64,000 bases of DNA, from assembly GCA_016717595.1 (NCBI GenBank), contig JADKFE010000001.1, forward strand, positions 182,445-246,444, in the 5' to 3' direction. Position numbers and translations under genes: made by a program. The notes under the pieces are model-generated. The model was not told the DNA's origin, made no database searches, and was given only the letters and a program-made list of their open reading frames with translations. Shown in pieces: positions 680 through 31,482 of the stretch (position 1 is the first letter of the stretch; every line of letters starts with the position of its first letter). The DNA comes from Deltaproteobacteria bacterium. Lineage in GTDB: Bacteria > Myxococcota_A > UBA796 > CAJQPC01.

Positions 680-2289
680 TGGCCCGTCTGTTGATGGTGG
701 ATGATCAGGATCGGTACGCGACGCTGGTGCGCCGCGCCTTGCCCGAGCACGAGCTCGTGGGGCCCACACGCTCGTGGGCCGAGACCAAGGCGGCCCTGCG
801 TCGTCTGGGGCGCGGCGTCGATGTGGTGCTGCTGGATGTTCATTTTGACATCCCCGAGGCCGATCTCCTCGGGCTGCCCGAGTCGCCAAGCCCCAAAGAC
901 GTCGAGCGCGCCCGGCGCCAGCAGGGTCTACACATCTTAGAGGCCCTGCGCGGGAGCCACCCCGATCTGGCCGTGCTGTTGATGACCAGCCGGGATGACC
1001 TGCCCCTGGAGCAGGCCGCCGAGCGCCACCACGCTGAAGAATACACCTACTTCTTAGACGACGACCTCGCCGACGCCGACGCCCTGCGCGCCCAGATCGC
1101 GAACATCCTCGCCGCCCAGGCCGGAGAAGACAGCGACGGCCCGGTGTTCTGGGGGCGAAACCCGGCGCTGCGCCGCATCCGCGCCCAGCTCCTCACCTTG
1201 GCCCGGGGGCGGCTGCCGATCGTGCTGGGTGGCCCCACGGGCACAGGAAAGAGCCTCATCGCCCGGCACTTCATTCACCCGCGCTCGGGGCGAGAGGGCC
1301 GCTTCGTCTCGGTTGATCTCTCGACGATGCCCAAAGACCTTGTCACCGCCCACCTCTTCGGCGCCGCGCGGGGCAGCTACACCGGCGCCGTGGCCGACCG
1401 CAAAGGCGCGTTTGAGGAGGCCTCTGGCGGCACGCTGTTTCTGGACGAGATCGGCAACCTCGCGGAAGACGTCCAGAAGATGCTGTTGACCGTGCTGCAA
1501 GAGGGCGTGGTCACCCGTCTGGGCGACATGAAGGAGCGCCCCGTAGACGTGAAGCTCGTCGTGGCCACCCATGAGGATCTCCCCGCGCTCGTGCGCCAAG
1601 GCCGGTTTCGCGCCGATCTTTACATGCGCCTCAACCCCGCGTGTACGGTCTTGCTGCCGCCGCTTCGTGAGCGCCTGGGCGATCTCAACCGCCTGATCGA
1701 AGAGAGCTTTGAGAAGGCGCTCGCCGGGCCCTACCTGCGGGAGCTCGTCGAGGTCTACACACAGTCCTACGGCCTCACCGGGGCCAAGCTCACCTTGACC
1801 ACAGGCGACGAGGTGCCCGAGCCCGAGCCCGGCCTGCTGTGGGTGCTCCTGCCCCAGAAGGCCCTGGTGCTCCTGCGCCGCCACCCTTGGCCGGGAAACC
1901 TGCGCGAGCTGGTGATGACCATCGAGAACGCCCTGGTGTTCAGCTTCGCCGAGCTGGCGCAGCTTCGTGAGGTGGAGCGGCCGGATCTGGTGCAGCTTCG
2001 CCCCAAGCTCATCCGGGATCTGCTGCGCACCGGGGATCTCGACACAAACGAGCTGCCCGCGGATGGCTGGCGAGTGGAGGTCTCGGTGCGGGCCGCCGAG
2101 TCGCTCAACGACGTGGCGTTGGACATTGAGCGGCAGTATTTCTCCGCGTTGTGGCGGGCGTATGATGGGGACTTTCGGGAGATGGCGCGCTGCTTGATGA
2201 ACGATCCCGACTGCGCACGAAAGGTGCAGCTCCGCTTCAACCAGCTCGGCCTGAAGGTGCGTGACATGCGCGGGAGGGCTGAAGGTTGA
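679..2289 (+). CDS. sigma-54-dependent response regulator (NtrC-family enhancer-binding protein)
   Basis: N-terminal receiver (LLMVDDQD...VVLLDVHFD). AAA+ sigma-54 interaction domain with Walker A GGPTGTGKS, GGTLFLDEIG, a GAFTGA-loop variant 'RGSYTGA', and RFRADLYMRLN. The C-terminus has a Fis-type HTH-like segment. Confidence 0.85.
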   Translation: MARLLMVDDQDRYATLVRRALPEHELVGPTRSWAETKAALRRLGRGVDVVLLDVHFDIPEADLLGLPESPSPKDVERARRQQGLHILEALRGSHPDLAVLLMTSRDDLPLEQAAERHHAEEYTYFLDDDLADADALRAQIANILAAQAGEDSDGPVFWGRNPALRRIRAQLLTLARGRLPIVLGGPTGTGKSLIARHFIHPRSGREGRFVSVDLSTMPKDLVTAHLFGAARGSYTGAVADRKGAFEEASGGTLFLDEIGNLAEDVQKMLLTVLQEGVVTRLGDMKERPVDVKLVVATHEDLPALVRQGRFRADLYMRLNPACTVLLPPLRERLGDLNRLIEESFEKALAGPYLRELVEVYTQSYGLTGAKLTLTTGDEVPEPEPGLLWVLLPQKALVLLRRHPWPGNLRELVMTIENALVFSFAELAQLREVERPDLVQLRPKLIRDLLRTGDLDTNELPADGWRVEVSVRAAESLNDVALDIERQYFSALWRAYDGDFREMARCLMNDPDCARKVQLRFNQLGLKVRDMRGRAEG

Positions 2290-5039
2290 GACAGCTCTTT
2301 GGCGCGGGTCTCACCCTCTGGCTTGTGGGGGTTGGTGTCGCCGCGGCGCAGGATCCCGGCGTGCCCAACGATCCGGCGCCAGCGCAAGCGGAGGGCGAAG
2401 ACGGCGCGGATCTTGTGGGCCTCGGCCTCGACCCGGTCACCCGAGGCGTGTTTGTGGAGGCCGCGCGCCACGAGGCCCGAGGGAGCTGGGCCCGGGCGGC
2501 CTCGGCGTATAGCCTCGTGCTGGGCCGCGAGCCCACCTACGCCCCCGCCGTGCTCGGCCTCGCCCGCGCCCGCGAGCGCCAAGGCGACCGCCGCGCCGCT
2601 GAGGCCACCTTACGCACCTTGCCCATGGACGCCGACGCGGTGGAGGCCCTCGCCGCCCTGCTGGTAGAGGAGCGCCCGGCGGAGTCTGTGTCTCTGTATC
2701 GCACCTTGGGGACGCTGCGCCTGGGGGATCCCGCGCCGCTCTTGTTTGAGGCCGAGGCGGCGCTGCGCGCCCGAGACGTCGGCGGATCGGTGGCGGCCCT
2801 CGATCGATACCTCACGTTTGACGGGGCGAGCCGCAGCCCGGATCGTGTCGTCGAGCTGATGGTGGGCCTCGCCGCGGCATACAAAGACGCCGGTGACCGT
2901 GAGGCGGCGAAGATGTGGTTGCGGCGGGCGATTGAGCAGGCCCCCGACGGCGCCCTCGCCGAGGAGGCCCGGGCCCGGCTCGATCGTGTGCTCGTGGAGG
3001 AGGCCGCCGACAGCCTCGCCTTGGGCGGCGCCGAGGAGCTCGATCCCACCCTCACCGCCGCCCTGGATCTCGCCCGCCGGGCCCTCGCCGAGGGGGATCC
3101 CCAAGGGGCGGCTCGGCGTCTGGAGGAGCTCGCGAGCGTCGCGCCGCGCTCGCCGGAGATCTGGGGTGCGCTCGGTGAGGCCCGGCTGGCGCTGAACGAC
3201 GTCGCTGGCGCCGAACAGGCGCTGATGACGGCGGTGGCGCTGCAGCCCGACGAGGCCAACTGGCGGGTGAGCCTGGGGCGTCTCATCGCCCTGGAGTACG
3301 CTGGGCGCCGCCATCGTGAGGCCATCGAGGAGCTCAGCGTGGCGTTGACCCTGCGCCCGTCGTGGACCGAGCTTCGATATCACCTCGGCGTGCTGCACCA
3401 AGAGTCCGGCGAGGGGGTCGAGGCCTTACGCGCATTGGAGGAGTATCTGCGCGTGGCGCCAGAGGGTGTGTACGCCGAGGCCGCGCGCCTCGCCATCACC
3501 CGGCTCACCCGACCCCGCCCCGAGGCCCCGTCGGTGGAGCGTCTGAGCGCCGTGCCCCCAGACGGGGTGCCCCCTGAGGCGTGGCGGCGATATCGGCTCG
3601 CCCAGGTGTATCTGCGGGATCGCCAAGACGACGCCCGGGCCCTGGCGGAGATCGACGCGGCCTTGGCCCTGGACCCCGACTACACAGACGCCATCAACCT
3701 GCTCGCCCGGCTGCAGCTCCGCGCCGGCCAGCATGACGAGGCCCTGGCGACCTATGAGCGCAGCCTCACGATGAACCCCAATCAGCCACAGACGCTCTTG
3801 TCTGTGGGCTATGCGCTGCAGGCCGAGGGGCAGGTCGCCAAAGCCGCCGCGCGGTTTCGTGAGGCCGCCCGGGTGGGCGCCCCCGAGGCTTGGTACGCCT
3901 TGGCGGCCCTCGCCGAGCAGGACGGGCGCTGGATGGAGGCGCGTGAGCTCCTCGCCGAGTACTTCGCCCGCGCCGCCGGTGGCCGAGATCACGAGGCGGC
4001 CTTGGCCCTGCGCGCCTCGTTGGAGCGCCGCCTTCGGGCGACGGTGGGCCTGATCACCGGCGCCGCGGGGATCGTGCTGGGTGTGCCCCTGCTCATCCTG
4101 CGCAGACGACGCAGCGGCCTCACCCTCGACGCGCTCTTGCTCCAGCACCCCGAGTGTTACGAGGAGGTCACCGCCGCGCTCACCGCGATGCGACACGAGG
4201 TCATCAAACACAACACAACGGTGCTCAAGACCGTCGCTGACGCCTTAGACGCCGGAGACCCCGGCCCGGCGCAGGAGGCGCTCGGCCGTCTTGTGGCCCC
4301 TGACGGCGCCGTGGCCCGCTGGGAGTCGTCATTACGCGCGCTGGAGGCCCTGGGCGCGGGGCTCGGCCTGCGCCTGAACCTGCGTCACTTGGACCCCGCC
4401 TTGGCCCCGATGTGTCGGGCGTTTGACGCGCTTCGGCGCCAGGCGCGCCGGGCGCGGTCGGGCAGGGCGTCCGCCGCCGAGCTTCGCCGCATCTCGGACG
4501 CGCTGAACGGCGAAGGATATCGGGCGTTGGGCCGCCTCATTCGTGAGGCGAACGTGCGCACCCTAGACGAAGAGACGCTGCGCGCGGCCTGGGAGCGTGT
4601 GCGCGCCGAGCCCGCCTTTCATGCGCTGGCCCAGCGTGGGCAGGCGCTTCCTCACCTAACAATCCACACAGACGGCATGCACCTGCCCGTTCGGGCCAGC
4701 GCGCAGGAGCTCGACGACATCATCGTGAACCTCCTGCGCAACAACCTTCAGGCCACCCTCGCCGAGCGTGGTGATGACGCCCGCCTGGGCCTCATCTTGG
4801 AGGAGGAGCTCGACCCGGTCACCGGCTTAGAGGAGGTGGCGATGCGTTTCTGCGACAACGCCCGGTCTGTGCTCACCGATGAGATGATTCAGGGCCGCTA
4901 CATCGCCCGCGGCTTCGGCATCGTCGTCGAGCGGGTGCGCCGCCGCCGGGGGTCTGTGCGTGTTGAGCCCGCCGCGGCCCCCTACAACAAGGCCATCGTG
5001 GTGCGTCTGCCCCGGGCCGAGCGTGAGGACAACCCATGA
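2286..5039 (+). CDS. TPR-repeat sensor protein with TM helix and C-terminal histidine-kinase-like ATPase
   Basis: Signal-like N-terminus followed by about 600 aa of Ala/Leu/Arg-rich TPR-like repeats. TM segment VGLITGAAGIVLGVPLLIL. Possible H-box 'AMRHEVIKHN', N-box-like 'IIVNLLRNNLQA' and G-box-like 'ARGFGIVV'. TTGA overlap with the upstream gene and ATGA overlap with the downstream gene. Confidence 0.6.
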   Translation: MRQLFGAGLTLWLVGVGVAAAQDPGVPNDPAPAQAEGEDGADLVGLGLDPVTRGVFVEAARHEARGSWARAASAYSLVLGREPTYAPAVLGLARARERQGDRRAAEATLRTLPMDADAVEALAALLVEERPAESVSLYRTLGTLRLGDPAPLLFEAEAALRARDVGGSVAALDRYLTFDGASRSPDRVVELMVGLAAAYKDAGDREAAKMWLRRAIEQAPDGALAEEARARLDRVLVEEAADSLALGGAEELDPTLTAALDLARRALAEGDPQGAARRLEELASVAPRSPEIWGALGEARLALNDVAGAEQALMTAVALQPDEANWRVSLGRLIALEYAGRRHREAIEELSVALTLRPSWTELRYHLGVLHQESGEGVEALRALEEYLRVAPEGVYAEAARLAITRLTRPRPEAPSVERLSAVPPDGVPPEAWRRYRLAQVYLRDRQDDARALAEIDAALALDPDYTDAINLLARLQLRAGQHDEALATYERSLTMNPNQPQTLLSVGYALQAEGQVAKAAARFREAARVGAPEAWYALAALAEQDGRWMEARELLAEYFARAAGGRDHEAALALRASLERRLRATVGLITGAAGIVLGVPLLILRRRRSGLTLDALLLQHPECYEEVTAALTAMRHEVIKHNTTVLKTVADALDAGDPGPAQEALGRLVAPDGAVARWESSLRALEALGAGLGLRLNLRHLDPALAPMCRAFDALRRQARRARSGRASAAELRRISDALNGEGYRALGRLIREANVRTLDEETLRAAWERVRAEPAFHALAQRGQALPHLTIHTDGMHLPVRASAQELDDIIVNLLRNNLQATLAERGDDARLGLILEEELDPVTGLEEVAMRFCDNARSVLTDEMIQGRYIARGFGIVVERVRRRRGSVRVEPAAAPYNKAIVVRLPRAEREDNP

Positions 5040-5674
5040 CACAGGTGCTCATCGTCGAGGACGGCCAGGAGTACAGCGCCCTGTTTCAGCGGTATCTCAC
5101 CGAAGGGTTCAGCTTCACCCGCGCTGGTGACGGCCCCGAGGCCCTTCTGCTGCTACAGACGCGGGCCTTCGCCGTCATCTTCTTGGACATGCGGTTTGAC
5201 CGCGCCGAGCCCAGCCGCCTGCTGGGGGATCTCGCCGCCACCACGGCCCGCTTCACCGGCGACGAGGCCCAGGCCCGCCGCCACTTGGAGGACCACCAAG
5301 GCGTGTACATCCTCGCGGCCTTACGCGAGGCCGGGGTGAGCGTGCCCGTGGTGATGAGCTACGATTTTGACGGTGAGCCCCGGCGCTTCAAACACCTGGA
5401 GTCACGGTACGCGCCGCTCTCTTACCTCACCGATGACGCCGGGCCCGCCGAGATCCGCGCGGCGCTGGGGCGAGCGGGCGGCGGCTGCTCAGCGGGCGGT
5501 GAGTCGCCCCTCAGCCCCCGAAGACCCCACGCCCGACGGCCCGAAGTCTCGGCTCGGCGGCGAGGATCAGAAGCTCGGCCTCGACCAGCCACCCGGCGAG
5601 CGTTGACTCGGCCACCCCCTCGGGGCCCACACGAAGCCGCGTCGTCTGCGCTTGGGGCGGCCCGTCGCCGATAA
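5036..5674 (+). CDS. response regulator receiver-domain protein
   Basis: VLIVEDGQEY...VIFLDMRFD...VPVVMSY receiver pattern. The last ~60 aa are Arg/Pro/Ala-rich and run antisense into the convergent gene 5511..5936, so the true 3' end is doubtful. Confidence 0.6.
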   Translation: MTQVLIVEDGQEYSALFQRYLTEGFSFTRAGDGPEALLLLQTRAFAVIFLDMRFDRAEPSRLLGDLAATTARFTGDEAQARRHLEDHQGVYILAALREAGVSVPVVMSYDFDGEPRRFKHLESRYAPLSYLTDDAGPAEIRAALGRAGGGCSAGGESPLSPRRPHARRPEVSARRRGSEARPRPATRRALTRPPPRGPHEAASSALGAARRR

Positions 5675-5936
5675 GCAGCGCGCCAAACAGCACAAACCCC
5701 GCGTCGTCTCGGGCGGCGGTGAAGGTGAGGCGGGTCAAGGCGTCGGCGCGCTCGCCGCTGGGCGAGAGATCGACGCTCGCGGCGAAGGGCAGCGCCACGC
5801 TGCGGGTGAGATCCAGGGCGGCGTGGCCCAACGGCAGCTCCGTCGAGAGCCTGCTGGTGAGCGCCCAGAGCGCGGGCTCGACGGCGTCCTCGACACGTCG
5901 GAGGATCTCGGCGGGGGAGAGCGTCGTCATCATCAC
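5511..5936 (-). CDS. hypothetical protein
   Basis: 141-aa ORF with ordinary amino-acid composition. Its ATG overlaps the stop of the upstream cNMP-binding gene (ATGA at 5933-5936). Confidence 0.4.
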   Translation of the reverse strand: MMMTTLSPAEILRRVEDAVEPALWALTSRLSTELPLGHAALDLTRSVALPFAASVDLSPSGERADALTRLTFTAARDDAGFVLFGALLIGDGPPQAQTTRLRVGPEGVAESTLAGWLVEAELLILAAEPRLRAVGRGVFGG

Positions 5937-6475
5937 TCCGGCGGAAGCCAGACCGCTTCAGGGTCAACCGTCTCGTTCGCGGCGTCTTCAGCGCCCTCAA
6001 GCTGACGGCTCAAGAAGTACAGTCGGCGGTTGGCGGCCCGGAGCTGCTCGCTGAACGAGGTCGCCAGCAGCTCCCGCAGCGCCAAGGCCAGGCGACCGTC
6101 TAGGGTGCGCGGGGCGCCGTGAAGCAGCTCGCCCGGCAGCTCCAGACACAGAGACGGCGCCGTCGCGGCGATGGTGGCGGCGCGGGGAGAACCATCACAG
6201 AGGCTCATCGCGCCGAAGATAGCCCCCGGGCGCAGGCGGCCGATGCGCTCTTGTCCGCCGTCGGGCCGGGCGCGGCTCACCCGGGCGCTGCCCTCCAAGA
6301 GGATGTAGAACCGTGTCCCGGCGCTGCCCTCCCGGGTGATGGCCTCGCCCGGCGCCAGCTCCCGCAGCCGCGCGCGCTCGATGAGACGCACCTGGAGATC
6401 GTTCGGCAGGCCTCCCAGCAGCGGATGCTGGTGAATCGCGGCGCCGAGCGCCTCTTGGCGTTGTTCGGGGCCCAT
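5933..6475 (-). CDS. cyclic-nucleotide-binding domain protein
   Basis: cNMP-binding pattern: GEAITREGSAGTRFYILLEG...IGRLRPGAIFGAMSL...PRAATIAA. Confidence 0.7.
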   Translation of the reverse strand: MGPEQRQEALGAAIHQHPLLGGLPNDLQVRLIERARLRELAPGEAITREGSAGTRFYILLEGSARVSRARPDGGQERIGRLRPGAIFGAMSLCDGSPRAATIAATAPSLCLELPGELLHGAPRTLDGRLALALRELLATSFSEQLRAANRRLYFLSRQLEGAEDAANETVDPEAVWLPPE

Positions 6476-7051
6476 CTACACCCCCAGCCGCAAGAACCGC
6501 GCGAGCCAAGACCGGCGCGGCTGGTGAGGCGGCGCGGGGGGCTCTAAGGCCAGGCCCGGCTCGGCGCGCACCCGCGCGAGGCGCTCATACATCGCACGAA
6601 TTCGCCGCGCCATGTGGTGATCGATCTCCGAGAGCAGCCACAGCGCGGCGGGGTGCCCTTCAGCGCGCAGCTTCTGGTAGTCCTCGAGCGTGAGCGTGAG
6701 CGCCCAGAGCTCCGTCTCCGCCCGAGCGCTCGCCGACCGTTTGCGTCGGTCGAGCAGGCCAAGATCCCCCACAAAGTCCCCATCGCCCAGACGCCCCAAC
6801 AGCACGACACGCCCGTGCTCCAAGGCCCGCTCCACCCGCACCTGACCGCTGAGGATGAGGTAGGCCGGGCCCGGCGGGTCACCGGCGCCGAACAGCGGCG
6901 TCCCCGCGGCCAGGCGCACCGAGCCCATCAGCGCGAGCAGCTCGCCGAGATCCCGAGGGTCCAGCCGCGCGCTCTCAGGAAAGGCCCGGGTGATCGCCGC
7001 GAACAGCTCCGGATCGCCAAACAGGGTGTGCGCTGGGGCCTTGTCGCTCAT
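6476..7051 (-). CDS. cyclic-nucleotide-binding domain protein
   Basis: GTPLFGAGDPPGPAYLILSGQVRV...LGDGDFVGDLGLLDRRKRSASARA. It directly abuts the next cNMP-binding gene. Confidence 0.7.
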   Translation of the reverse strand: MSDKAPAHTLFGDPELFAAITRAFPESARLDPRDLGELLALMGSVRLAAGTPLFGAGDPPGPAYLILSGQVRVERALEHGRVVLLGRLGDGDFVGDLGLLDRRKRSASARAETELWALTLTLEDYQKLRAEGHPAALWLLSEIDHHMARRIRAMYERLARVRAEPGLALEPPAPPHQPRRSWLARFLRLGV

Positions 7052-7895
7052 CCTCTCACCGCCCGGCGTAACCAGCGTAAGCCCCGGCCGACGTGGTGAT
7101 AAAACGGCGTGCCCGAGGTGTCGGACTTGGGCTCATACGGCCCGCTGAGGTAGGGCACATACATCGAGCGCCGCAGGCTCGTGGGCCCCACCCGCGTGGA
7201 GGCCGCCACGCGGTGCCACAGGCGCCCATCATGCACGGTGAGATCCCCGGCAAGGTCTCGACGGCGATCTCCGCCGGGTCCGGCGCGTGCTGCAAGAAGT
7301 AGAGCTTGCGAAAGCACATGTCCATGAAGCCCTGGTTGTGGCTCCCCGGGATCAGCCGAAGACCGCCGTTGTCTGCGGTGATCTCATCGAAGTGAAGCCC
7401 CACGTTGAGCATCTGCTGGGGCATCCGCAGGTAAAACAGATCCCGCAGGCCGTCTGTGTGCCATCCCAGGCGCGGGTACTCGCTGCCGGGGTTGTTGAGG
7501 TAACGGTTGACGACGACGCCGTCCTTCTCGTCGTCACCGATGCGCGCGTCCTCACCGACAAGCCGCCGCACCGGCTCAAACCGTTGATCCCGCACAAAGT
7601 TACGCACCGTCTCCGAGAACATCGACGTGAACGCGAAGCGCTGCACAAACGGCCCCCCGGCGCTGTCTTTGCCCACGGTGAGCGGGATGCCGTACACCCA
7701 CCGCCGACCCTCCGCGATCCACCGCGCCTGCACCTCGTCCAAGGCCGCGGCGAGGGCCTCGATCTCATCGGGGCTAGCGACCCCGGCGAAGATCAAGAAG
7801 CCCCAACGATCCAAGAACGCCCGCTGCTCCGGGGTGATCTCCGGGCCGAGGGTGAAGCGGGGGACGTGGGTGAGCGTGGTCGTGAGGGCGTTCAT
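7048..7895 (-). pseudogene. phytanoyl-CoA dioxygenase (PhyH) family protein, frame-broken as sequenced
   Basis: The N-terminal 7056..7895 frame looks PhyH-like (RLGWHTDG...LNVGLHFDEITADNGGLRLIPGSHN). The C-terminal motif 'GDLTVHDGRLWHRV' lies in the 7048..7317 frame, whose stop forms an ATGA overlap with the next gene. The switch is at the C4/G4 run at 7245-7248, consistent with one missing base. Confidence 0.7.
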
Positions 7896-7965
7896 GGGGC
7901 AGGGGAGGTTGGGGGACAGAGGAGGATAGCACCTGGGCGGGCGGGGCGGGAGTCAGCGGCTCTGC

Positions 7966-8655
7966 TTAAGGCGGGTGCCGCGGGCCTCGGCGAGCTTCAC
8001 CGCGTGGCGTAAGCGCGGCAACACCGCGAGGGGTAGGGCGGAGGTCGCCGACAGCGGCCTCATAGGGCGTCAGCAGCGCCCGTACGGCCTTGAGCTGGGC
8101 GGCGTGTCCTGGCAAACCCAGGATGCGCTGAATCTTGCTGATCACCGCGTCGATGACGCTCTTTCGGCTGCGTACCAGGACCGCGGCGTTGAGGTTGAGC
8201 GTCGTGAGCAGCTCGACCTCATAGCGGGTGTCGTTCGCCGCCACCTTGCCATCGGGCAGGTATCGCACGAGCGTCTCTGTGTCGGGTGTCGGCGCGGCGG
8301 GGTTGAGGGCGAGAGGTTGGTTCCCGCGAGACTTGTCACAGTGGAGGGGGCTCAGGAGCTTACCGTCTGCCCTGAGCCACTCATCTTGTTGACCGCCTGG
8401 GCAGACCGCCAGGAGGTTTCGCCACTCAAAGTGGCTGGTGTTGGGGTCGCTTCGGGGGCGCCAATGCTCTAGACTCGTCGTGCGGTCCCGCAGCAGCCGA
8501 CCGTTGCAGTACGCGCAGAGGCCACGCTGCTCGGCGATCGCCGCGTCACGCAGCGCCTCCTTGTCGCCGGGGCCCTCTTCGCCCCAGGTTGCCCGCTGGG
8601 CGTGCAGTCTCACCGCCGCAGGGGGCGGCGCACCCTTCTGAATCGTCCGCATCAC
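7966..8655 (-). CDS. HNH endonuclease, TIGR02646/PtuB-like
   Basis: CAYCNGRL...SLEHWRPRS...WRNLLAVCPG...HCDKSRGN matches the Cys/His pattern of the HNH partner of Septu-type ATPases. The start (GTG 8655 or ATG 8652) overlaps the ATPase stop. Confidence 0.7.
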   Translation of the reverse strand: MMRTIQKGAPPPAAVRLHAQRATWGEEGPGDKEALRDAAIAEQRGLCAYCNGRLLRDRTTSLEHWRPRSDPNTSHFEWRNLLAVCPGGQQDEWLRADGKLLSPLHCDKSRGNQPLALNPAAPTPDTETLVRYLPDGKVAANDTRYEVELLTTLNLNAAVLVRSRKSVIDAVISKIQRILGLPGHAAQLKAVRALLTPYEAAVGDLRPTPRGVAALTPRGEARRGPRHPP

Positions 8656-9554
8656 CCCTCCGCGAGCATCAAGAGCGTCTCAATGCGCGCTAACTCGGGG
8701 TCGTCGTGCTCTAAGGTCGTTCGAAGCTCCTCGTAGATCGCCCGGGCCTCGGCGGTGTGGTCGTCGAGCAGGTCGTAGAGCCTTGCGAGCTTCTCCATGA
8801 TCGCCTCCGGTCGCTCGGGAACCTCAAACACCGTGTCGAGCAGGGTGTTGGTGTCGCGGCCAAAGGTCTTGGGGTGGCCGGGCAAAAACTTGAAGTCTTT
8901 CATCATCACCACGGCCTCGCTGGGCACCGAGGCGAGCACCTGGGGCGAGTGGGTGGTCACCATGAGCTGGACCTTGGGGAACGCGGCGCGCAGGGCTGGC
9001 ATCACCCGGCGCTGCCAGCCGGGGTGAAGGTGGAGATCGATCTCGTCGGCGAGTAGCACACCGGGGGAGGCTGTGGGGTCGGAGAGGTGGGGATTGAGGA
9101 TGGCCATCCGCCGAGCCACGTCACCGACGAGGAGGATGAGGCGGCGCTCGCCGTCGGAGAGCTGGTCGAGGTAGAGAGGGGTGCCGTCCTTCTCGATGGT
9201 GAGGCGGCCCCTTACGGTGCCAAGTGGGCCGCTGACATGCGTCCGAACTACGCGGAGATGCGCAAGCCGTTCGCCACGAAGGTGTTGAAGAAAACGTTGA
9301 ACGGCATCCCTGACCGCGCGGAGCGGCGGGAGTTGGAGACCGAGCGTGCCCCGTCGCAGACGTTGTTCATTCTCAATATTCTCCTCAGCTTCGTACCACG
9401 TCTCAAAGTCTTCAAAATGTGTAGCCTCCTGATCGAATGCGCCGATATATGCGGTTAGGCGACCCTTAGACCATTTACCTGATCGAAGGAAGTCGAGGAT
9501 GTTGCGAGTCGAGCTGCTATGTAAATATGAAAAACCGGAAGTGTAAGCCGGGCA
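8652..9554 (-). pseudogene. ABC/AAA_15-type ATPase (PtuA-like), N-terminally truncated remnant
   Basis: My hand translation shows the frame open from the stop at 9555-9557 down to 8652, but with no ATG/GTG/TTG before 9119. It encodes the signature 'LSDGERRL', Walker B 'VLLADEIDLHLHP' and H-loop 'VTTHSP'. No Walker A is present. The 5' part (9360-9590) is AT-rich (one 60-nt line hand-counted at 40% G+C). Confidence 0.65.
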
Positions 9555-9593
9555 TCATTCTTTGAGGCGATCTTTTCGACCACTCGTAGACCG

Positions 9594-10832
9594 CTACCCC
9601 TCCCCCCTCTGCCACCGCGGCACCATCCACTCCCACTTCACCGCGCTCTCCGTCGGCAGCACCACCTCAAAGATCCGCTCCTTCCCCTGAAACTGCAGCC
9701 GCCGCCGCATCTCCACCGACGTCGCCCGCAGCTCCGTGAACGGCAACCGCCAGCTCGCGGGCGCCTTGGGCGTCGGATGTAAGCTCAGCCCCTCCGCCGT
9801 GAGCCGCAGGTGCCCCACGCCCAGGGGCACGGCGTCGTCTTCGGTGACGTCGAGGAGCTCCGCGCGCTCGGACTCCATCACGACACCTTCGGCGGAGAAG
9901 CGGGCGAGGTCGGCGGCGCGGCGCAGGGTGACCAGGGCCTTCGCGGCGGTGACGGCTTCAGCGATGGGGCGCTCGCCGCCGGGGCCGCGTAGGGTCAGCT
10001 CGGGGGTGACGGTGTAGACGGCGAGGCAGGCGGTGCAGTGGAGCGTGTCGCCGCGCTCGGCCAGGCTGTCGAACACGCCGCAGCGGGGGCAGGCGAAGAG
10101 CGCGTTGGCGAGGCCCACGGCGAGCCCTCCGCCGCGCACGGGGAACCTTTGGCTGTCTTTGGCCCAGAGCTGAACACGCTGCTCTAGGAGGGGCCGCAGC
10201 TCCTTGGGTGAGCGCTCGTGCAGCGCCTCGGGCGGGTCCAGCTCGATATGAATTCGGCCCCAGCGCGGCTTGGGCGCCCAGCGGGGCCACACGCGGTCGG
10301 CGTTGTGCAGGCGCGCGGTCACCACGGGGGCCTTCATCAAACGCACGAGCTTCTCGATGCCGTCGAGCAGAGGCAAGGGCTCGCCGTCCCAGGAGCGCTG
10401 GCCCTCGGGGAACAGGCCCACGGCGGCGTCGAGCTCACGCCAGGCGATGAGCTGCTTCACCGCGCGCAGATCGGCGCTGAACTTCTTCTTGGGCACCGCG
10501 CCGAGCCAGCCCACAAAACGCCCCACGGGGCCCTCCTGCAGCAAGGCCTGGGTCGCCATAAAATGCACCGGGCGGTTCACGGCGATGGTGAGCAGGATGG
10601 GGTCCAGGGCGGTCTGGTGGTTTGAGAGCAGAAAGACCGGGCCCTCTTTGGGGAAATGCTCAAGGCCGCTCACGGAGATCGGCACACGCGGGCTCAGGCC
10701 CAGGCGAAACGTCGGGATGAGCCAACGCATCGCGCGCTGAATCATGGCGAGGTTCTCGGGGCTCGGCGGGGTCGCGGGGTTTCGGTGCAGGGCCATGTCG
10801 CCTCGCAGGAGGGGAACGGGGCAGGGCGCCAC
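9594..10832 (-). CDS. PlsC-type acyltransferase with C-terminal Cys4 zinc-ribbon region
   Basis: HX4D motif 'LSNHQTALDPILL', 'LFPEGQRS', later 'CPRCG...CTAC'. The start is ambiguous (10832, 10796 or 10745). Confidence 0.7.
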   Translation of the reverse strand: MAPCPVPLLRGDMALHRNPATPPSPENLAMIQRAMRWLIPTFRLGLSPRVPISVSGLEHFPKEGPVFLLSNHQTALDPILLTIAVNRPVHFMATQALLQEGPVGRFVGWLGAVPKKKFSADLRAVKQLIAWRELDAAVGLFPEGQRSWDGEPLPLLDGIEKLVRLMKAPVVTARLHNADRVWPRWAPKPRWGRIHIELDPPEALHERSPKELRPLLEQRVQLWAKDSQRFPVRGGGLAVGLANALFACPRCGVFDSLAERGDTLHCTACLAVYTVTPELTLRGPGGERPIAEAVTAAKALVTLRRAADLARFSAEGVVMESERAELLDVTEDDAVPLGVGHLRLTAEGLSLHPTPKAPASWRLPFTELRATSVEMRRRLQFQGKERIFEVVLPTESAVKWEWMVPRWQRGEG

Positions 10833-11078
10833 GCTAACCCATCCAGGCGCCCCGATGAAGCCCCCCAGCGGTCAAGGCTTCGTGGGGAGCCGCGCGGGAG
10901 GCGAGGGGAGGGCGGCGCGGCGACGATCGTCGGGGAGGCCGCGCGCACCGACGCCCGGCGCGGCGGGATCACGGCCCCACCACGAGACCAACCCGCCGAG
11001 CCCCTCATAGGCGGCGCCTCACCCGCTCACGATGAACGATTCCGCCCCACATCTCCGCGACGGTGTAGACTCCCCGCT

Positions 11079-11954
11079 ATGCCTGGGCTCATTCAGCGAC
11101 TCGTCGGACCCCCGATCTCCCCCGAAACCCTCGCGGCGCTCAAGGCGACGTCCGCGGTGAACTCCGCGGGCTACGACCCCTGGGGCCTCAACCCCGAGTA
11201 CGCCGCCGAGGCCACCCGTTACTTCTCGTTTCTGTACCGCCACTGGCTGCGGGTGGAGACCCACGGCTTAGAGAACGTGCCCCAAGGCCGGGTGATGCTC
11301 GTGCCAAATCACGGCGGGCAGCTCCCTCTGGACGGCATGATGGTCGGCCTCGCCATGGCGCTCGAGGCCAGCCCGCCGCGGGTGGTGCGCGGCATGGTCG
11401 AGCGCTGGTTCCCCAGCCTGCCGTTTGTCTCGACGCTGTTTGTGCGCTGTGGGCAGGTGGTCGGCGACCCCGAGAACTGTGAGGCGCTCTTGCGCCGTGA
11501 ACAGTGCATCATGGTGTTCCCCGAGGGCGTGCGCGGCAGCGGCAAGCTCTGGTCTGAACGATACCGCCTGCAAGAGTTTGGCTCGGGTTTTGTGCGCATC
11601 GCGCTGGAGACCCGCACCCCCATCGTGCCCGTGGCGATCATCGGCTGTGAAGAGACCTACCCCGCGATCTACAACGCCAAGACCCTCGCCAAGCTCATGG
11701 ACGCGCCGTATCTGCCGGTGACGCCCACCTGGCCGCTTCTGGGGCCGCTCGGCGCGTTGCCCCTGCCGGTGAAGGTGCAGCTCTATTTTGGCAAGCCCAT
11801 CCTGTTCAGCGGTGATCCCGACGAGCCCGATGAGAAGACCCACGCTCGGGTGGAGCAGGTCAAATCCACGCTGCAGGGCATGATCGACGAGGGCCTGCGC
11901 GCTCGCCCCCGGCTCAAGGCCCTCGACCGCCTCGCGCGCTGGGGGCGCCCATGA
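11079..11954 (+). CDS. lysophospholipid/glycerol-phosphate acyltransferase family protein
   Basis: 'LVPNHGGQLPLDG' and 'VFPEGVRGSG' acyltransferase motifs. The ATG at 11079 is preferred. The track's upstream extension from 10656 is Arg/Gly-rich junk. Confidence 0.7.
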   Translation: MPGLIQRLVGPPISPETLAALKATSAVNSAGYDPWGLNPEYAAEATRYFSFLYRHWLRVETHGLENVPQGRVMLVPNHGGQLPLDGMMVGLAMALEASPPRVVRGMVERWFPSLPFVSTLFVRCGQVVGDPENCEALLRREQCIMVFPEGVRGSGKLWSERYRLQEFGSGFVRIALETRTPIVPVAIIGCEETYPAIYNAKTLAKLMDAPYLPVTPTWPLLGPLGALPLPVKVQLYFGKPILFSGDPDEPDEKTHARVEQVKSTLQGMIDEGLRARPRLKALDRLARWGRP

Positions 11955-12886
11955 GCGTGCTCATCACCGGCGCGGCCGGGGCGCTCGCGGCGCTGGTCAC
12001 CCAGAGGCTTGAGGGCGGCGAGCCCCTGGTGGGCGTCGATCTGCGCCCGATGCGCGCCGAGCGGCCCTTCCCCGGGGACTACATCCAGCTCAATCGGTAC
12101 TCCAGCCGCCGCATGGCGGACGTGTTCCGCAAATACAAACCTCGGCTGGTGATTCATCTGGGCGTACGCGCCGGGTTTCAGCGGTCGATGCAAGATCGTT
12201 ACACCAACAACGTCTTGGGCACCCGGCACCTGCTCCAGCTCTGTGAACGATACCCCGTGCAGCGGGTGGTGGCGCTCTCGACCTACCACGTCTACGGCGC
12301 CCACCAGCACAACGCCGTGGGCATCCGTGAGGACGCCCCCCTGCGCGCCTCGCAGATCTTCCCTGAGCTCGCCGACGCCGTCGAGCTCGATCACACCCTC
12401 ACCACGTTTATGTGGCGCCAGCGGCAGGTCTCCACGATCGTGCTGCGTCCGTGTAACGTCATCGGCCCCACGCTCAACAACCAGATCAGCCGCCTGCTCC
12501 GTAGCCAGCGCAGCCCTCGACTGTTGGGCTTTGATCCCATGCTGCAGTTTATGCACGAGGACGACGCCGCCCGGGCCATCGCGCTGGCCTGCCAGTCCAA
12601 CCGCTGGGGCGTGTACAACGTCGCCGGGGAGGGCACGATCCCCTATGAAGAGGCCATCCGCCACGCCGGGGGCCGCCCGGTGCCGATCCCCAGCTTCCCG
12701 GCCTACGTCGCGGTCTCGTTGTTGTGGCGGCTGCGCCTGATCTTCCCCCAGCACCTCATGGACTATTTCCGATACCCCACGGTGATCGACGACTCGTCGT
12801 TCCGCAAAGAGCTGGGCTTTGAGCCCAACCACAACACCTTAGAGACCTTGGCGAGCCTGCGACTGTCGCCTCCGCGGCGGAGCTGA
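11951..12886 (+). CDS. NAD-dependent epimerase/dehydratase (SDR) family protein
   Basis: N-terminal 'VLITGAAGALAA' Rossmann motif, an STYHVYG region, and ATGA coupling to the acyltransferase. Confidence 0.75.
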   Translation: MSVLITGAAGALAALVTQRLEGGEPLVGVDLRPMRAERPFPGDYIQLNRYSSRRMADVFRKYKPRLVIHLGVRAGFQRSMQDRYTNNVLGTRHLLQLCERYPVQRVVALSTYHVYGAHQHNAVGIREDAPLRASQIFPELADAVELDHTLTTFMWRQRQVSTIVLRPCNVIGPTLNNQISRLLRSQRSPRLLGFDPMLQFMHEDDAARAIALACQSNRWGVYNVAGEGTIPYEEAIRHAGGRPVPIPSFPAYVAVSLLWRLRLIFPQHLMDYFRYPTVIDDSSFRKELGFEPNHNTLETLASLRLSPPRRS

Positions 12887-12889
12887 GCC

Positions 12890-13819
12890 GTGGAGCGCGC
12901 GCTCACACCGCTGATGGCGCGCTGGGCTGAGGAGGCGCTCGGCGCCGCGCCGCCAGAGGAGCCCGAGGCCACCTGCCACAGCTGTGTGATGTGTACGCCC
13001 GAGCCCGGGCCGCGGTTTTTGCCCGACGTGAAGTGCTGCATGTACCTCCCGGCGCTCAAGAACTTCCAGGTGGGCCTCGCCCTGCGCACCGAGGAGGGCC
13101 GCCGCACCACCTTGCCGCGCCTGGCCGACCCGCGAAACGTCACGCCCTTGGGGCTCACCCGCGGCGACGCGCAGGTTGGGCCCCTACGTCGGGCCTTGGC
13201 TGAAGGGCGCTTTGGGCAGGCCCCGGCCTTGGTCTGCCCCCACTTTGACGCCGTTGAGGGCGGACGATGTACGATCTGGGCCGCCCGAGACGCCGTCTGC
13301 GCGACCTGGTTCTGCCGTGTGTCGCGGGGGGCCCGAGGGCGCGGGGCCTGGCATGAGCTGCACAACCTGCTCACGGAGCTTGAGGAGCTCGTCGCCCGGG
13401 TCGTCGCCCCACGTCTGGGTGAGGCGCCGGTCGCCGAGCCGAGCTGGGGGCCGTGGGCCGGGCGCGCCGAGGCCTATTATGGCCGCTGCGCTGAGCTGGC
13501 CGAGGCGTTTGCCTGGGATGAGCTGCGGCGTCTGGGCGGCTTCGCCGTTCGATTTCGCCAGCGCAACGCCCGAGAGGCCCAGCGGGCCCGGGAGGTGTTT
13601 GAGCCGATCGTGTGGGATGTCCCCGGTCGCTGGGCGCTGGGCGCCGCGCGGACAGAGCGCGGCGAAGATGGCCTCGTCTACGCCTTTGGTGACGGCCCGT
13701 ATCAGCCGGTGCTGCTCACCGAGGCGCAGTGGGCGGACGTTCAGGCGGGCGGCGGCCCGGCGCTGAGCGACGCTTTGGCCCGGCGGCTCGTCGATCATCA
13801 CGTCTGGGTGGCCCCCTGA
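12890..13819 (+). CDS. hypothetical Cys-rich protein
   Basis: 309-aa ORF with Cys clusters 'CHSCVMC', 'KCCMY', 'CPHF..GGRCTIW...CATWFC'. Family not recognised. Confidence 0.4.
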   Translation: MERALTPLMARWAEEALGAAPPEEPEATCHSCVMCTPEPGPRFLPDVKCCMYLPALKNFQVGLALRTEEGRRTTLPRLADPRNVTPLGLTRGDAQVGPLRRALAEGRFGQAPALVCPHFDAVEGGRCTIWAARDAVCATWFCRVSRGARGRGAWHELHNLLTELEELVARVVAPRLGEAPVAEPSWGPWAGRAEAYYGRCAELAEAFAWDELRRLGGFAVRFRQRNAREAQRAREVFEPIVWDVPGRWALGAARTERGEDGLVYAFGDGPYQPVLLTEAQWADVQAGGGPALSDALARRLVDHHVWVAP

Positions 13820-13844
13820 GGGTGATCTGGGCTATGCTCTTGAG

Positions 13845-14693
13845 ATGAGCCCATCCGACCTCTTCTGTGATGTGTCCTTCGCCGCCCGCGTCGAGCGCGC
13901 GGACTGCCTGCTCCTCGCCGAGGCCTGTGTCTCCACGGCGCGGCGCCTCGACGGCGTGCTGGCCGCGCCCCTCGGCGGGGGGTTCGTCAGCTACGCCGAG
14001 CCCGGCTCGCCCCTGAACAAGATCGCGGGCTTAGGCTTCGCGCCGCTGCACCTTGGAGACCTCGCGGCGGCAGAGGAGCGTGTGCTCGCCCGGGGCGGCC
14101 CCGTCCAGGTAGAGCTCTCGTCGTTGGGAGACCCGGCCATCGGCCAGGCGCTCACCCGCCGGGGCTATGTGCTCATGGGGGTGGAGCAGGTGCTCGGCCG
14201 CAGAGTCACCCCCGCCGACGCCGAGGCGCCCCTCCCCGACGGCGTGACCGTCACCGAGTCCCCGCTCTCGGGGTTAGAGGGCTGGTTGCAGCTCCTCACC
14301 GAGGGCTTCTTGAGCCCCGACGGTCAAGGAGTAAAGTCCCACGAGACGTTTGAGCAGGCCACGCTCACACAGACGATGCGCGACTTTGCGCAGACTGAGG
14401 GCATGACTCGGTTTGTCGCCGCGGTGAACGGTCAGCCCGCCGGGGGGGCCTCCCTCCGTCTCACCGACGGGATCGCCCAGCTCTGCGGCGCGGCGACGCT
14501 CCCGGCCCTTCGACGCCGCGGTGTACAGACCGCGATGTTGACGGCGCGCCTCGCCTTGGCGGCCCAGGCGGGCGCCGATCTCGCGGTGATCACCACCATG
14601 CCCGGCAGCCGCTCCATGCAGAACGCCCAGCGCCGCGGGTTTGTGCCGCTCTACGTCCGGAACATGCTCGTGCTCGCCCCGGACGCCGCATGA
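13845..14693 (+). CDS. GNAT-family N-acetyltransferase (putative)
   Basis: The C-terminal 'LPALRRRGVQTAMLTARLALAAQAGADL' resembles the acetyl-CoA-binding Q/RxxGxG/A segment of GNATs. Confidence 0.55.
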   Translation: MSPSDLFCDVSFAARVERADCLLLAEACVSTARRLDGVLAAPLGGGFVSYAEPGSPLNKIAGLGFAPLHLGDLAAAEERVLARGGPVQVELSSLGDPAIGQALTRRGYVLMGVEQVLGRRVTPADAEAPLPDGVTVTESPLSGLEGWLQLLTEGFLSPDGQGVKSHETFEQATLTQTMRDFAQTEGMTRFVAAVNGQPAGGASLRLTDGIAQLCGAATLPALRRRGVQTAMLTARLALAAQAGADLAVITTMPGSRSMQNAQRRGFVPLYVRNMLVLAPDAA

Positions 14694-29318: not shown

Positions 29319-30623
29319 CGCCTGTGGAGCGGCTGTTTGAGGGTGACAAACACGGCGCGGGCCCGGGCCTGCACCGGATGAGCGCGCTTCTGGCGCACCC
29401 CGAGCTGTCTGTGCTGAGCACGATCCCCACGGCGCGGGTGACGGGATCCAACGGCAAAGGCTCCACCTGCGCCTTCCTCTCGGAGATCCTGCGCGCCTCG
29501 GGCCGGTCTGTGGCGCGCTTTACGTCGCCGCACATGAACGATCCGCGGGAGCGTTTTTGGCGGGACGGCGCCGACATCTCCGCCGAGGCCCTGGCCGAGA
29601 TCGCCGCCTGGACCCACGAGCAGGTGACTCTGTACGAGGCGCGCTTCCCCGGCGACCGTGTGGGCGCCTTTGAGCGGCAGGTGCTCAGCTTCGCCCGCTG
29701 GGTGGCCCTCGATCCCCCCGACGCCGTCGTGCTGGAGGTCGGCATCGGCGGGCGATTAGACAGCACCCGGGCTTGGCCCTGCGGGCTCGCCGGGCTCACC
29801 TCGGTGGACTTAGAGCACACGGCGCTGTTGGGGCCGACACGTCTGGACATCGCCTTAGAGAAGGCCCAGGCGGCGCCGTCTGGCGGCGTGCTGCTGCTCG
29901 GCGCCTTGCCCGGGGAGCTTCAGCGTCGGGTGATCGGCGCCTGTGAGGTGTGGGGAATTCACGCGGAGCCTGTGACGGAGAGCGCCGTGGTGCGTGAGGC
30001 GCGTCTGGACGGGGATCAGATGACCGCTTGGCTCTCCTTGCCCCAGCACGGCCATAGACCTCGGGCCCCTGCGTCTGGGGCTCTTGGGGCTTCATCAGGC
30101 GGAGAACGCGGCGATGGCGACGGCCTTGGCGCTGCGACTGTGTGGGGTTCGCGGTGAGGAGGCGGCCCGGCGGTTTGAGCCCGCGCTGCGGTCGGGCCTC
30201 GCCGCGGCGTGTTGGCCGGCGCGGCTGGAGCGTGTGGCGGAGGATCCGCCGACGTACCTCGACGCCGCGCACACCCCCGACGCCGCCCGGCGCCTCGCGG
30301 AGAGCCTGCCAGGGCTGCTCCAAGGGCGGGCGCTGGTGCTGGTGGCGGCGTGCTCGGCGGACAAAGACGCGGCGGCGGTGCTCTCGCCCCTCGTGGGGTT
30401 GGCCGAGCTTGTGATCACCACCCGGTCGGCGCGGGGGCAGGGCGCGGAGGCGCTGCGGGGGCTCGTGGTGGGGCTTGGGCGCGAAGGAGGCGCGGGCGGT
30501 GGAGCCCGTGGGCGCGGCGTTGGCGGCGGCGCGGGAGGTGGCGCGGGGGTGCGGCGGCGTGGTGGTGCTGGCGGGGAGCTTGTTCGCGGCGGGGGAGGGG
30601 AGGGTTGCCCGCTCAGGGGGTGA
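29315..30623 (+). pseudogene. FolC/Mur-ligase-family protein 2, frame-broken as sequenced
   Basis: ATGA coupling to gene 1. 'VTGSNGKGST', 'LEVGIGGRLDST', 'VDLEHTALLG'. The frame changes at the C4 run 30041-30044 (to 'AIDLGPLRLGLLGLHQAENAA', 'YLDAAHTPDA') and again around 30440-30478 (to 'VVVLAGSLFAAGEGR'). The 3' end is uncertain. Confidence 0.65.
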
Positions 30624-30689
30624 AGGGGCGGACTGGAGGAAGGTGACGAGGGCTTGGGAGGTGGGGCCTTGGAAGGCGTCGGGGGGAGG

Positions 30690-31482
30690 CCCAATTGTCT
30701 CTTGTCTCGATCAATCGCCACGGAGAGTGGGTCGCCAGGAAAGTAGGGCTGCCCGGCGATGGTCATCTGGGCCTTAAGGCGCTCGGATCGTTTGGTGTAT
30801 GCGGCTGCGTCTGGTGGACAGTGGTTGTTGAGGAGGTCGTCGGCGGCGGTCCAAGCGCCGGGCCATCGTTTGGCGACCTCGGGGGCGAGCACGGCCTCCA
30901 GGGTGCCATTGCCGTGGTCATCGGCGAAGATGAACAGCCCTACGGGCACGTCGCCGTGGCGAATCCAGCCGCCATGGCTCAGCCTGTCGACGTCCGAGAA
31001 CGTGCCTCCGTAGTCGTCGCGGAAGGTCTGCTCACGCGCGGCGATAGACGTGTCGGCATCGAAGACGAAGGCGACGGCGTACTCGGTCACCACGAACATG
31101 CCGTAGCTGTTGGAGAGCGTCGCGCTAAGATTGGACAACAGCTCAACGATCTTCGTCTTCGCGGAATCCGTGCCACAGCGCACAAGAGCACGAGCTGGTC
31201 GCGCGAGGCGTCGCGGAGGGCGCAGATAAACGCCGGAGCAGGCGCATGAGCGGCTTGGCTCAAACGCTCTCCGCCTAGCGCCCTTGTTGAGTAGTGCTGC
31301 ACAATCAGGGACACACCCCGGCCTGGGGCGTTGGGGTGCCTGGGAGTCTGCAACGCTCCAAAAGGCGACGGGAGCTTGTCAATGGGATCATTGATGAACT
31401 CCAGCCCAGCGACGGCACCTAGGCTTCGACGAACAAACACGATGTCATGGTTGCCTTCACAGAAGATGAGCAAGGCTTTCAT
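30690..31482 (-). pseudogene. Toprim-like protein (DUF4435/DUF3226/DUF4276-type, AriB-like), frame-broken as sequenced
   Basis: ATG 31482 overlaps the upstream ATPase stop (ATGA). 'MKALLIFCEGNHDIVFV' (Toprim Glu), then after a frame switch near 31183-31215: 'VAFVFDADTS' (DxD) and 'VGLFIFADDHGNGTLEAVL'. The ORF has no stop until 30095, but the sequence beyond about 30690 is Pro/Ser junk antisense to folC-like gene 2. Confidence 0.6.

Follow-up and report, generated by a model that had tools for sequence, protein, structure and literature searches.

Septu of type I is an anti-phage defence system whose solved E. coli complex (PDB 8EE4/8EE7) is encoded by two co-oriented genes overlapping at their junction, one for the ATPase PtuA and one for the HNH nuclease PtuB. 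Homologous PtuA/PtuB modules are found in retrons of type I-A, also called 'type II Septu' (Retron-Eco7/Ec78 and Retron-Eco4/Ec83), where they are combined with a reverse transcriptase (RT) as well as a non-coding RNA. In retron-associated PtuAB the Walker A mutation K99E abolishes oligomerisation of PtuA, for which Walker A-dependent ATP binding is needed, and PtuB acts as a nuclease only in complex with PtuA (PMC13376987). PtuAB is toxic, an effect that neither protein has by itself and that is lost when the active site of either is mutated (PMC12640716). A pair of C-terminal extensions of PtuA holds PtuB (PMC12819146), whose C-terminal domain docks on the extension in the solved retron complexes (PMC12819146, PMC13376987). 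Here we describe a ptuA-ptuB pair in a stretch of 64,000 nucleotides (nt) from contig JADKFE010000001.1 of a Deltaproteobacteria bacterium (positions 182,445 to 246,444; hereafter the window). It is very probably an ordinary type I Septu locus that was inactivated by the loss of ~393 nt in a single deletion.

An initial annotation, made from the DNA letters alone, had proposed a decayed Septu-like pair, and profile searches bear out the Septu identity. The 300-residue translation of the ptuA remnant matches the PADLOC model PtuA1 (PDLC00271; E 1.5e-78, 263 bits) over positions 158-412 of 421, and the HNH protein matches PtuB1 (PDLC00322; E 1.2e-39); these are the best PADLOC models for the two partners. 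The annotation had named the lack of a TIGR02646 or PtuB match as a finding that would speak against it. In addition to its PtuB1 match, the HNH protein reaches 59.6 bits with TIGR02646 (cutoff 52.15), which makes it a PtuB of this HNH type, with the caveat of a frameshift that, in the sequence as it stands, affects the last ~25 residues. The NCBIfam models of PtuA (NF041760; E 2e-50, positions 329-519 of 524) and PtuB (NF041761; E 4e-24) are matched below their equivalog cutoffs, and Pfam matches in the remnant are AAA_21 (E 5e-16) and AAA_15 (E 2e-7). Gabija GajA, AbiL, PARIS AriA and OLD have the ATP-binding cassette (ABC)-type ATPase core in common with the remnant. They differ from it in that PtuA profiles score far higher, and in that the partner is a PtuB-type HNH protein and not a Toprim or helicase protein.

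Like type I Septu, the window holds two adjacent, co-oriented genes in an operon arrangement with an overlapping junction. Of PtuA, the ABC signature, Walker B, H-loop and C-terminal helical extension are present, as are the Cys pair and catalytic His of the HNH protein. The window copy differs in being without Walker A and the first ~113 codons, in lacking its start codon as well as the spacer upstream of it, and in having a PtuB tail that is frameshifted as sequenced; it is a pseudogenised and not a working copy. By ancestry the first gene is a ptuA, yet with its nucleotide-binding site incomplete it does not encode a functional PtuA. Solved structures matched by the remnant include PtuA of stand-alone Septu (8EE4; query 127-291 to chain 275-450) and of retron Ec78 (query 119-296 to chain 344-533), the top matches being retron PtuA chains. 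The arrangement is nevertheless that of a stand-alone type I Septu and not of a retron. No RT gene adjoins the pair in the window or, judging from the Pfam matches of the neighbouring genes, in its intact relatives L004 and L005, and Rfam yielded no match at the gathering threshold over the whole window. Moreover, retron PtuA proteins of 542-552 amino acids (aa) have an N-terminal extension that is absent from the 426-430-aa PtuA of the intact relatives. With an acyltransferase gene and a PhyH-family gene as flanks, no RT and no Rfam match, a retron identity was rejected.

Relatives are referred to below by contig (L001-L025) and PtuA homologue (P0001-P0066). The gene order of the window is common to four metagenomic relatives from uncultured Myxococcota (L004, L005, L007 and L008), and a full PtuA of 426-430 aa is encoded in three of the four. 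In L004, the contig on which the best database match is encoded, the order is epimerase, acyltransferase, acyltransferase, PtuA (426 aa) and PtuB (233 aa). PtuA of L005 has 429 aa and a GTG start, and that of L008, from a Myxococcota metagenome-assembled genome (MAG), has 430 aa and is followed by PtuB and PhyH. The fourth, L007, is a Myxococcota MAG contig with a 95% identical acyltransferase that ends 63 codons into ptuA, the 5' end of the gene with Walker A being present. A scan of a genome collection with the acyltransferase had led to two syntenic Myxococcota MAG contigs and to one distant relative (L009; acyltransferase 41% identical) without Septu. The closest database homologues of the remnant are full-length (426-430 aa, 80-87% identity) and carry Walker A, GPNGSGKS, at residues 30-38; the remnant aligns with them from about residue 131. 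With P0001 it is 87% identical, and this intact protein spans positions 1-412 of the PADLOC PtuA1 profile. Looking for the intact locus in relatives, as the annotation had suggested, thus turned it up at the same site in L004, L005 and L008. Given these syntenic intact loci, Septu appears to be an old chromosomal resident of the clade, with truncation limited to the window copy.

The deletion can be placed to the base. Over 3.57 kb that include the acyltransferase gene (9591-13160), the window is 97.7% identical to L004 at the nucleotide level. The sequence in common with the relatives stops at TAGCGG (9596-9591), that is, at the acyltransferase stop codon plus three bases, so that this gene forms the left edge of the deletion. 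The window then resumes with TCTACGAGTGGTCG..., which corresponds to ptuA codon ~114 of intact alleles, and the junction reads TAGCGG followed directly by TCTACGAG. Around codon ~114 the window encodes VYEWSK and its relatives LHQWSK, YDWYK or FEWYR. Compared with L004, about 393 nt (3573..3964) are lost, comprising a spacer of 56 nt and the beginning of ptuA from its GTG start through codon 113, Walker A included; the flanks of the junction align without rearrangement. Measured against the intact homologues, as had also been suggested, ~113 of 426-430 codons are missing. The initial description of the gene as the C-terminal half of an ATPase was correct in that only a C-terminal part is left (profile positions 158-412 of 421), but the loss amounts to ~27% of ptuA and not to half of it. 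The missing N-terminal part of PtuA was not found elsewhere in the 64-kb window by tblastn (best E 0.04, to an unrelated P-loop). Profile matches, intact syntenic loci and the base-level junction all agree with the earlier view of a remnant truncated by deletion.

What is left of ptuA abuts the acyltransferase gene, as had been noted before. The first ~20 codons require two frame switches, from VYEWSK to KIASKNDARLTLPVF to SYLHSSSTR, each at a gap of one base, in an A-run at 9573-9576 and in a T-run at 9530-9534; this reading is based on three-frame translations, the gap list against L005 and tblastn high-scoring segment pairs (HSPs) in frames -1 and -3. The long frame is then open from a stop TGA at 9557-9555 down to 8652 and encodes LDQLSDGERRLILLVGDV, LLADEIDLHLHP and TTHSP. 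Walker A is absent from its translation, and no ATG, GTG or TTG occurs in it for 145 codons before the GTG at 9119, in accordance with the hand translation of the annotation. A product starting at this GTG would comprise the last 155 codons at most, and no Shine-Dalgarno-like sequence was seen by eye 5' of it. The last 62 PtuA residues are identical in the remnant and in intact P0001 (Alignment A1).

The ptuB product contains the motifs CAYCNG, LEHWRPRS, WRNLLAVC and LHCDKSRGN, and its catalytic His and Cys/His ligands are conserved (Alignment A3 and comparison with solved chains). The His of LEHW aligns to a position occupied by His in one solved Ec83 PtuB chain and by Ala in another, and we take the two to be the wild type and a catalytic mutant. 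The overlap with the stop of the upstream frame, also described initially, consists of one base that the ptuA TGA and the ptuB ATG share (TGATG, 8654-8650), a junction layout that recurs in L004 and L005. A GGAGG is located 4 nt 5' of the ptuB ATG. The gene cannot be called intact as had been assumed, because two single-base gaps in C-runs, at ~8039 and ~8029, put the last ~25 residues out of frame. The conserved tail, PLAVLPRLRHAVKLAEARGTRLKQSR, can still be read in frame -3 with 92% identity (tblastn) up to the ancestral TGA at 7955-7953; relatives end in ...GDLPPYPLAVLPRLRRAVELAEARGTRLKQSR (233 aa) and the window in ...GDLRPTPRGVAALTPRGEARRGPRHPP. The affected part belongs to the helical C-terminal domain, and the frameshift may be an assembly error. 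A public assembly index searched for exact copies of this PtuB protein had no entry for it. Coordinates of the features are compiled in Table 1.

Table 1. Positions of the Septu remnant, its motifs and its flanking genes (window coordinates unless another contig is named)
Feature	Positions	Strand	Basis or remark
PhyH-family dioxygenase gene	7895-7048	minus	directly 3' of ptuB
ptuB (HNH nuclease)	7966..8652	minus	from ATG, 228 aa; GTG alternative start 8655
Frameshifted 3' tail of ptuB	7953..8041	minus	gap lists against L004, L005 and L001; Alignment A3; tblastn
HCD (ptuB)	8335-8343	minus	
N79 (ptuB)	8416-8418	minus	
Catalytic His in LEHW (ptuB)	8464-8469	minus	
Cys pair CAYC (ptuB)	8506-8517	minus	
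Long open frame of ptuA remnant	8652..9554	minus	~residues 131-426 of intact PtuA; TGA at 8654-8652
PtuA C-terminal helical extension, kept	8655..8865, approximate	minus	Alignment A1 and match to solved PtuA chains
H-loop TTHSP (ptuA remnant)	8943-8957	minus	
Walker B LLADEID (ptuA remnant)	9036-9056	minus	
First ATG/GTG/TTG of remnant frame (GTG)	9117..9119	minus	3' of the signature motif
ABC signature LSDGE (ptuA remnant)	9147-9161	minus	
5' scrap of ptuA remnant	9530..9591	minus	VYEWSK, then KIASKNDARLTLPVF, each in another frame
Deletion junction	9590..9591	minus	MAFFT Alignment A2; BLAST HSP ends; residue mapping on P0001-P0004
Flanking acyltransferase gene, not Septu	9594..10796	minus	stop TAG 9596-9594; Pfam PF01553, E 4e-17
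Loci with sharply bounded hypervariable segment in ptuA and raised divergence in ptuB	window 9160-9530 and 8078-8557; L004 3626-5607; L005 7317-9274; L008 1475-3430		

We propose the following course of events. In a clade of uncultured Myxococcota, a stand-alone Septu locus occupies a fixed chromosomal site with the acyltransferase gene on one side and the PhyH-family gene on the other. In this genome, one deletion of ~393 nt would have taken away the spacer preceding ptuA together with its start codon and codons 1-113. The spacer presumably held the ptuA promoter and ribosome-binding site, and the Walker A P-loop was lost with these codons, as was the greater part of a hypervariable segment. 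A PtuA without P-loop, start codon and promoter-proximal spacer is expected to provide neither scaffold nor defence. Loss of phage protection at the window locus is predicted from the Walker A dependence (PMC13376987), and leftover PtuB should be inert, ptuB being in all likelihood a harmless orphan. Transcripts of ptuB could arise by read-through of the acyltransferase gene, and its own GGAGG could serve for translation. No terminator-like site was found between the acyltransferase gene and ptuB, and a promoter-like match (TTGAGA-17-GAGAAT; 9406-9378, minus strand) is located inside the AT-rich ptuA remnant. It is the sole sigma-70-like match in 7800-11200, where 0.1 would be expected by chance, and is a consensus match only. 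These three features together indicate that ptuB may still be made.

The deletion appears to be recent relative to the split from L004, the closest relative. In the C-terminal 186 codons of PtuA, the synonymous divergence (dS) between window and L004 is 0.118 and the ratio of nonsynonymous to synonymous divergence (dN/dS) is 0.12. The neighbouring acyltransferase, a housekeeping gene (97.1% nucleotide identity), gives similar values of 0.10 and 0.07, and by this comparison constraint on the ptuA remnant does not look relaxed. The locus is thus an inactivated member of a well-studied defence system and, with loss of defence genes by deletion being common, holds little novelty in itself. It does offer a base-resolved example of the inactivation of a chromosomal Septu while relatives keep the locus, and a census of defence systems should not list it among functional Septu loci.

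Divergence between window and L004 is mosaic. Nucleotide identity is 93-100% in the flank, 48-85% in the scrap and the middle of ptuA (9520-9160), mostly 95-100% in the 3' part of ptuA and 75-90% in much of ptuB (8557-8078). In the same comparison synonymous sites are saturated in PtuA codons 161-240, and dS of ptuB is 0.33-0.41. Intact alleles whose acyltransferases are ~90% identical share 27-80% identity over PtuA residues ~31-180, with the lowest values, 27-57%, around residues 61-120. This segment is low in G+C in all alleles, intact ones included; in the window, G+C is 0.47-0.55 over 9300-9600 as opposed to ~0.70 around it. The AT-rich upstream end that had caught the annotator's attention is therefore real but equally normal in intact alleles, and we rejected low G+C as the mark of a deletion scar or a foreign insertion. 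An intact allele with the variable region of the window was not found, the closest being that of L014 with 74% identity. Short-read contigs from four samples or MAGs break in the variable region of ptuA, where L001-L003 start and L007 ends. Such breaks are expected where co-existing strains differ in a segment. The pattern suggests exchange of alleles by recombination in a specificity-like segment of PtuA. The right end of the deletion lies inside this segment, and the deletion could thus be a by-product of recombination. One may speculate that Septu is a long-term resident in which ~125 PtuA codons between Walker A and signature are exchanged by recombination and that the deletion arose in this way, a scenario which is possible but which we hold only tentatively. 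If true, this would make the segment a candidate for the module by which stand-alone Septu achieves specificity or sensing. Its hypervariable, low-G+C character could mark the part that decides what the system senses.

Three points weigh against inactivation by a real deletion as proposed here. The functional data come from E. coli retron-associated PtuAB and not from the stand-alone Septu of this clade; a scan of one metagenome collection gave no match to the exact junction, and no independent assembly confirms the deletion; and at least three other window genes are frame-broken, which makes assembly quality at the locus doubtful. The broken genes were detected by profile searches and a scan in which frame switches were sought by codon-position scoring, a simple G+C-phase track being too noisy. 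In a thiamine pyrophosphate (TPP) enzyme broken at ~19965 (plus strand), the N and M domains are in one frame and the C domain in another. Profile positions 1-480 and 481-727 of a DUF5682 protein (~50050, minus strand), and positions 65-543 and 543-714 of a PDC-M38A-like ATPase (~32000), likewise fall into different frames. So many broken conserved genes within 64 kb are unlikely for a free-living bacterium, and the assembly thus probably contains indel errors. Close relatives allow a comparison over 13 kb, in which all seven single-nucleotide differences are bases missing from the window, mostly within short base runs. In favour of real breaks, the five that affect coding frames all lie in the 2.4 kb of ptuA, ptuB and the PhyH gene, with none in ~9.5 kb of other coding sequence, for which we calculate a probability of ~3e-4 if breaks were evenly spread. 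In the PhyH gene, a single-base gap at ~7246 relative to L001 and L005 leaves the conserved C-terminus, GDLTVHDGRLWHR..., in another frame, and this gap may be real or an assembly error. The clustering fits real decay as well as a locally poor consensus in a strain-variable region, and we consider the single-nucleotide gaps about equally likely to be artefacts or not.

It is a larger step to assume that the genome has an intact ptuA-ptuB and that the 393-nt gap, too, was produced by assembly or polishing of a strain-variable region. The broken genes elsewhere in the window, the one-sided gaps and the contig breaks of relatives in the PtuA variable region would fit such an origin, which is far more plausible for the single-nucleotide gaps than for the large deletion. 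A clean loss of 393 nt, leading from three bases after a stop codon to a homologous ptuA codon between flanks that align without rearrangement, is unlike an error of the homopolymer type. The deletion is probably real and another kind of event than the small gaps, and we regard an artefactual origin of the whole as unlikely. Even less probable is a residual function, in which ptuB would be kept and expressed to serve some other purpose, such as that of a free HNH nuclease, maybe together with a 155-aa C-terminal fragment of PtuA. The intact catalytic motifs, the GGAGG before the ATG, the possible routes of transcription mentioned above and a PtuB-binding C-terminal extension identical to that of an intact relative would all be in keeping with it. 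Yet PtuB activity needs a PtuA oligomer, which in turn needs Walker A (PMC13376987), the PtuB tail that is frameshifted as sequenced lies in the PtuA-binding domain, no ribosome-binding site is visible before the GTG at 9119, and a recent deletion would account just as well for how conserved the remnant is.

The remaining explanation, a PtuA that is naturally short and works without a P-loop part of its own or is split with its N-terminal part encoded separately, would have removed the need for a deletion, and a family lacking the N-terminal half had been named at the outset as what would overturn the truncation. Two PADLOC profiles are covered by the fragment nearly end to end (PDLC00286, 22-280 of 289; PDLC00275, 85-341 of 348), and several database homologues have only 201-367 aa. 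However, full-length P0001 matches both profiles by its C-terminal part only, which identifies them as partial profiles and not as a naturally short family. The short homologues that we examined are explained otherwise. L001-L003 start inside ptuA and yield contig-end fragments; full-length PtuA genes lie behind miscalled short entries in L005 (7317-8606), L006 (7286-8542) and L025 (~2820-4104); the gene in L024 is broken; the start of P0066 was miscalled; and P0048 is preceded by an N-terminal part that is broken. Independent truncations in relatives, for which the 201-204-aa proteins P0010, P0015, P0016 and P0024 were candidates, were rejected on the same grounds, these being contig-start fragments or products of miscalled starts. 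Public PtuA entries of 201, 204 and 367 aa represent start-codon miscalls on full-length genes, caused by a GTG start in one gene and by a missed upstream start in others. Since the remnant moreover has no start codon for 145 codons and no N-terminal fragment was found in the window, a naturally short or split PtuA appears largely refuted from sequence comparison, and we consider it extremely improbable. Short public 'PtuA' entries that stem from GTG starts and contig ends can mislead pseudogene checks based on length.

Two loci with other putative defence genes were observed alongside. In L006, a distant PtuA homologue (52% identical to P0004) lies in an apparent defence island (1702-14530), where it has as neighbours a large Helicase_C protein, an MZB-domain protein, an AAA_15/AAA_21 ATPase and a PDDEXK_7 protein. 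In the window itself, a second candidate defence locus (30098-33486, minus strand) encodes the PDC-M38A-like AAA_15/AAA_21 ATPase (PADLOC PDLC04607, E 4e-124), 3' of which there is a weak PDC-M38B-like match (E 8e-11). Further putative frame breaks in the window are located at ~22634, ~30053, ~30472 and ~37652.

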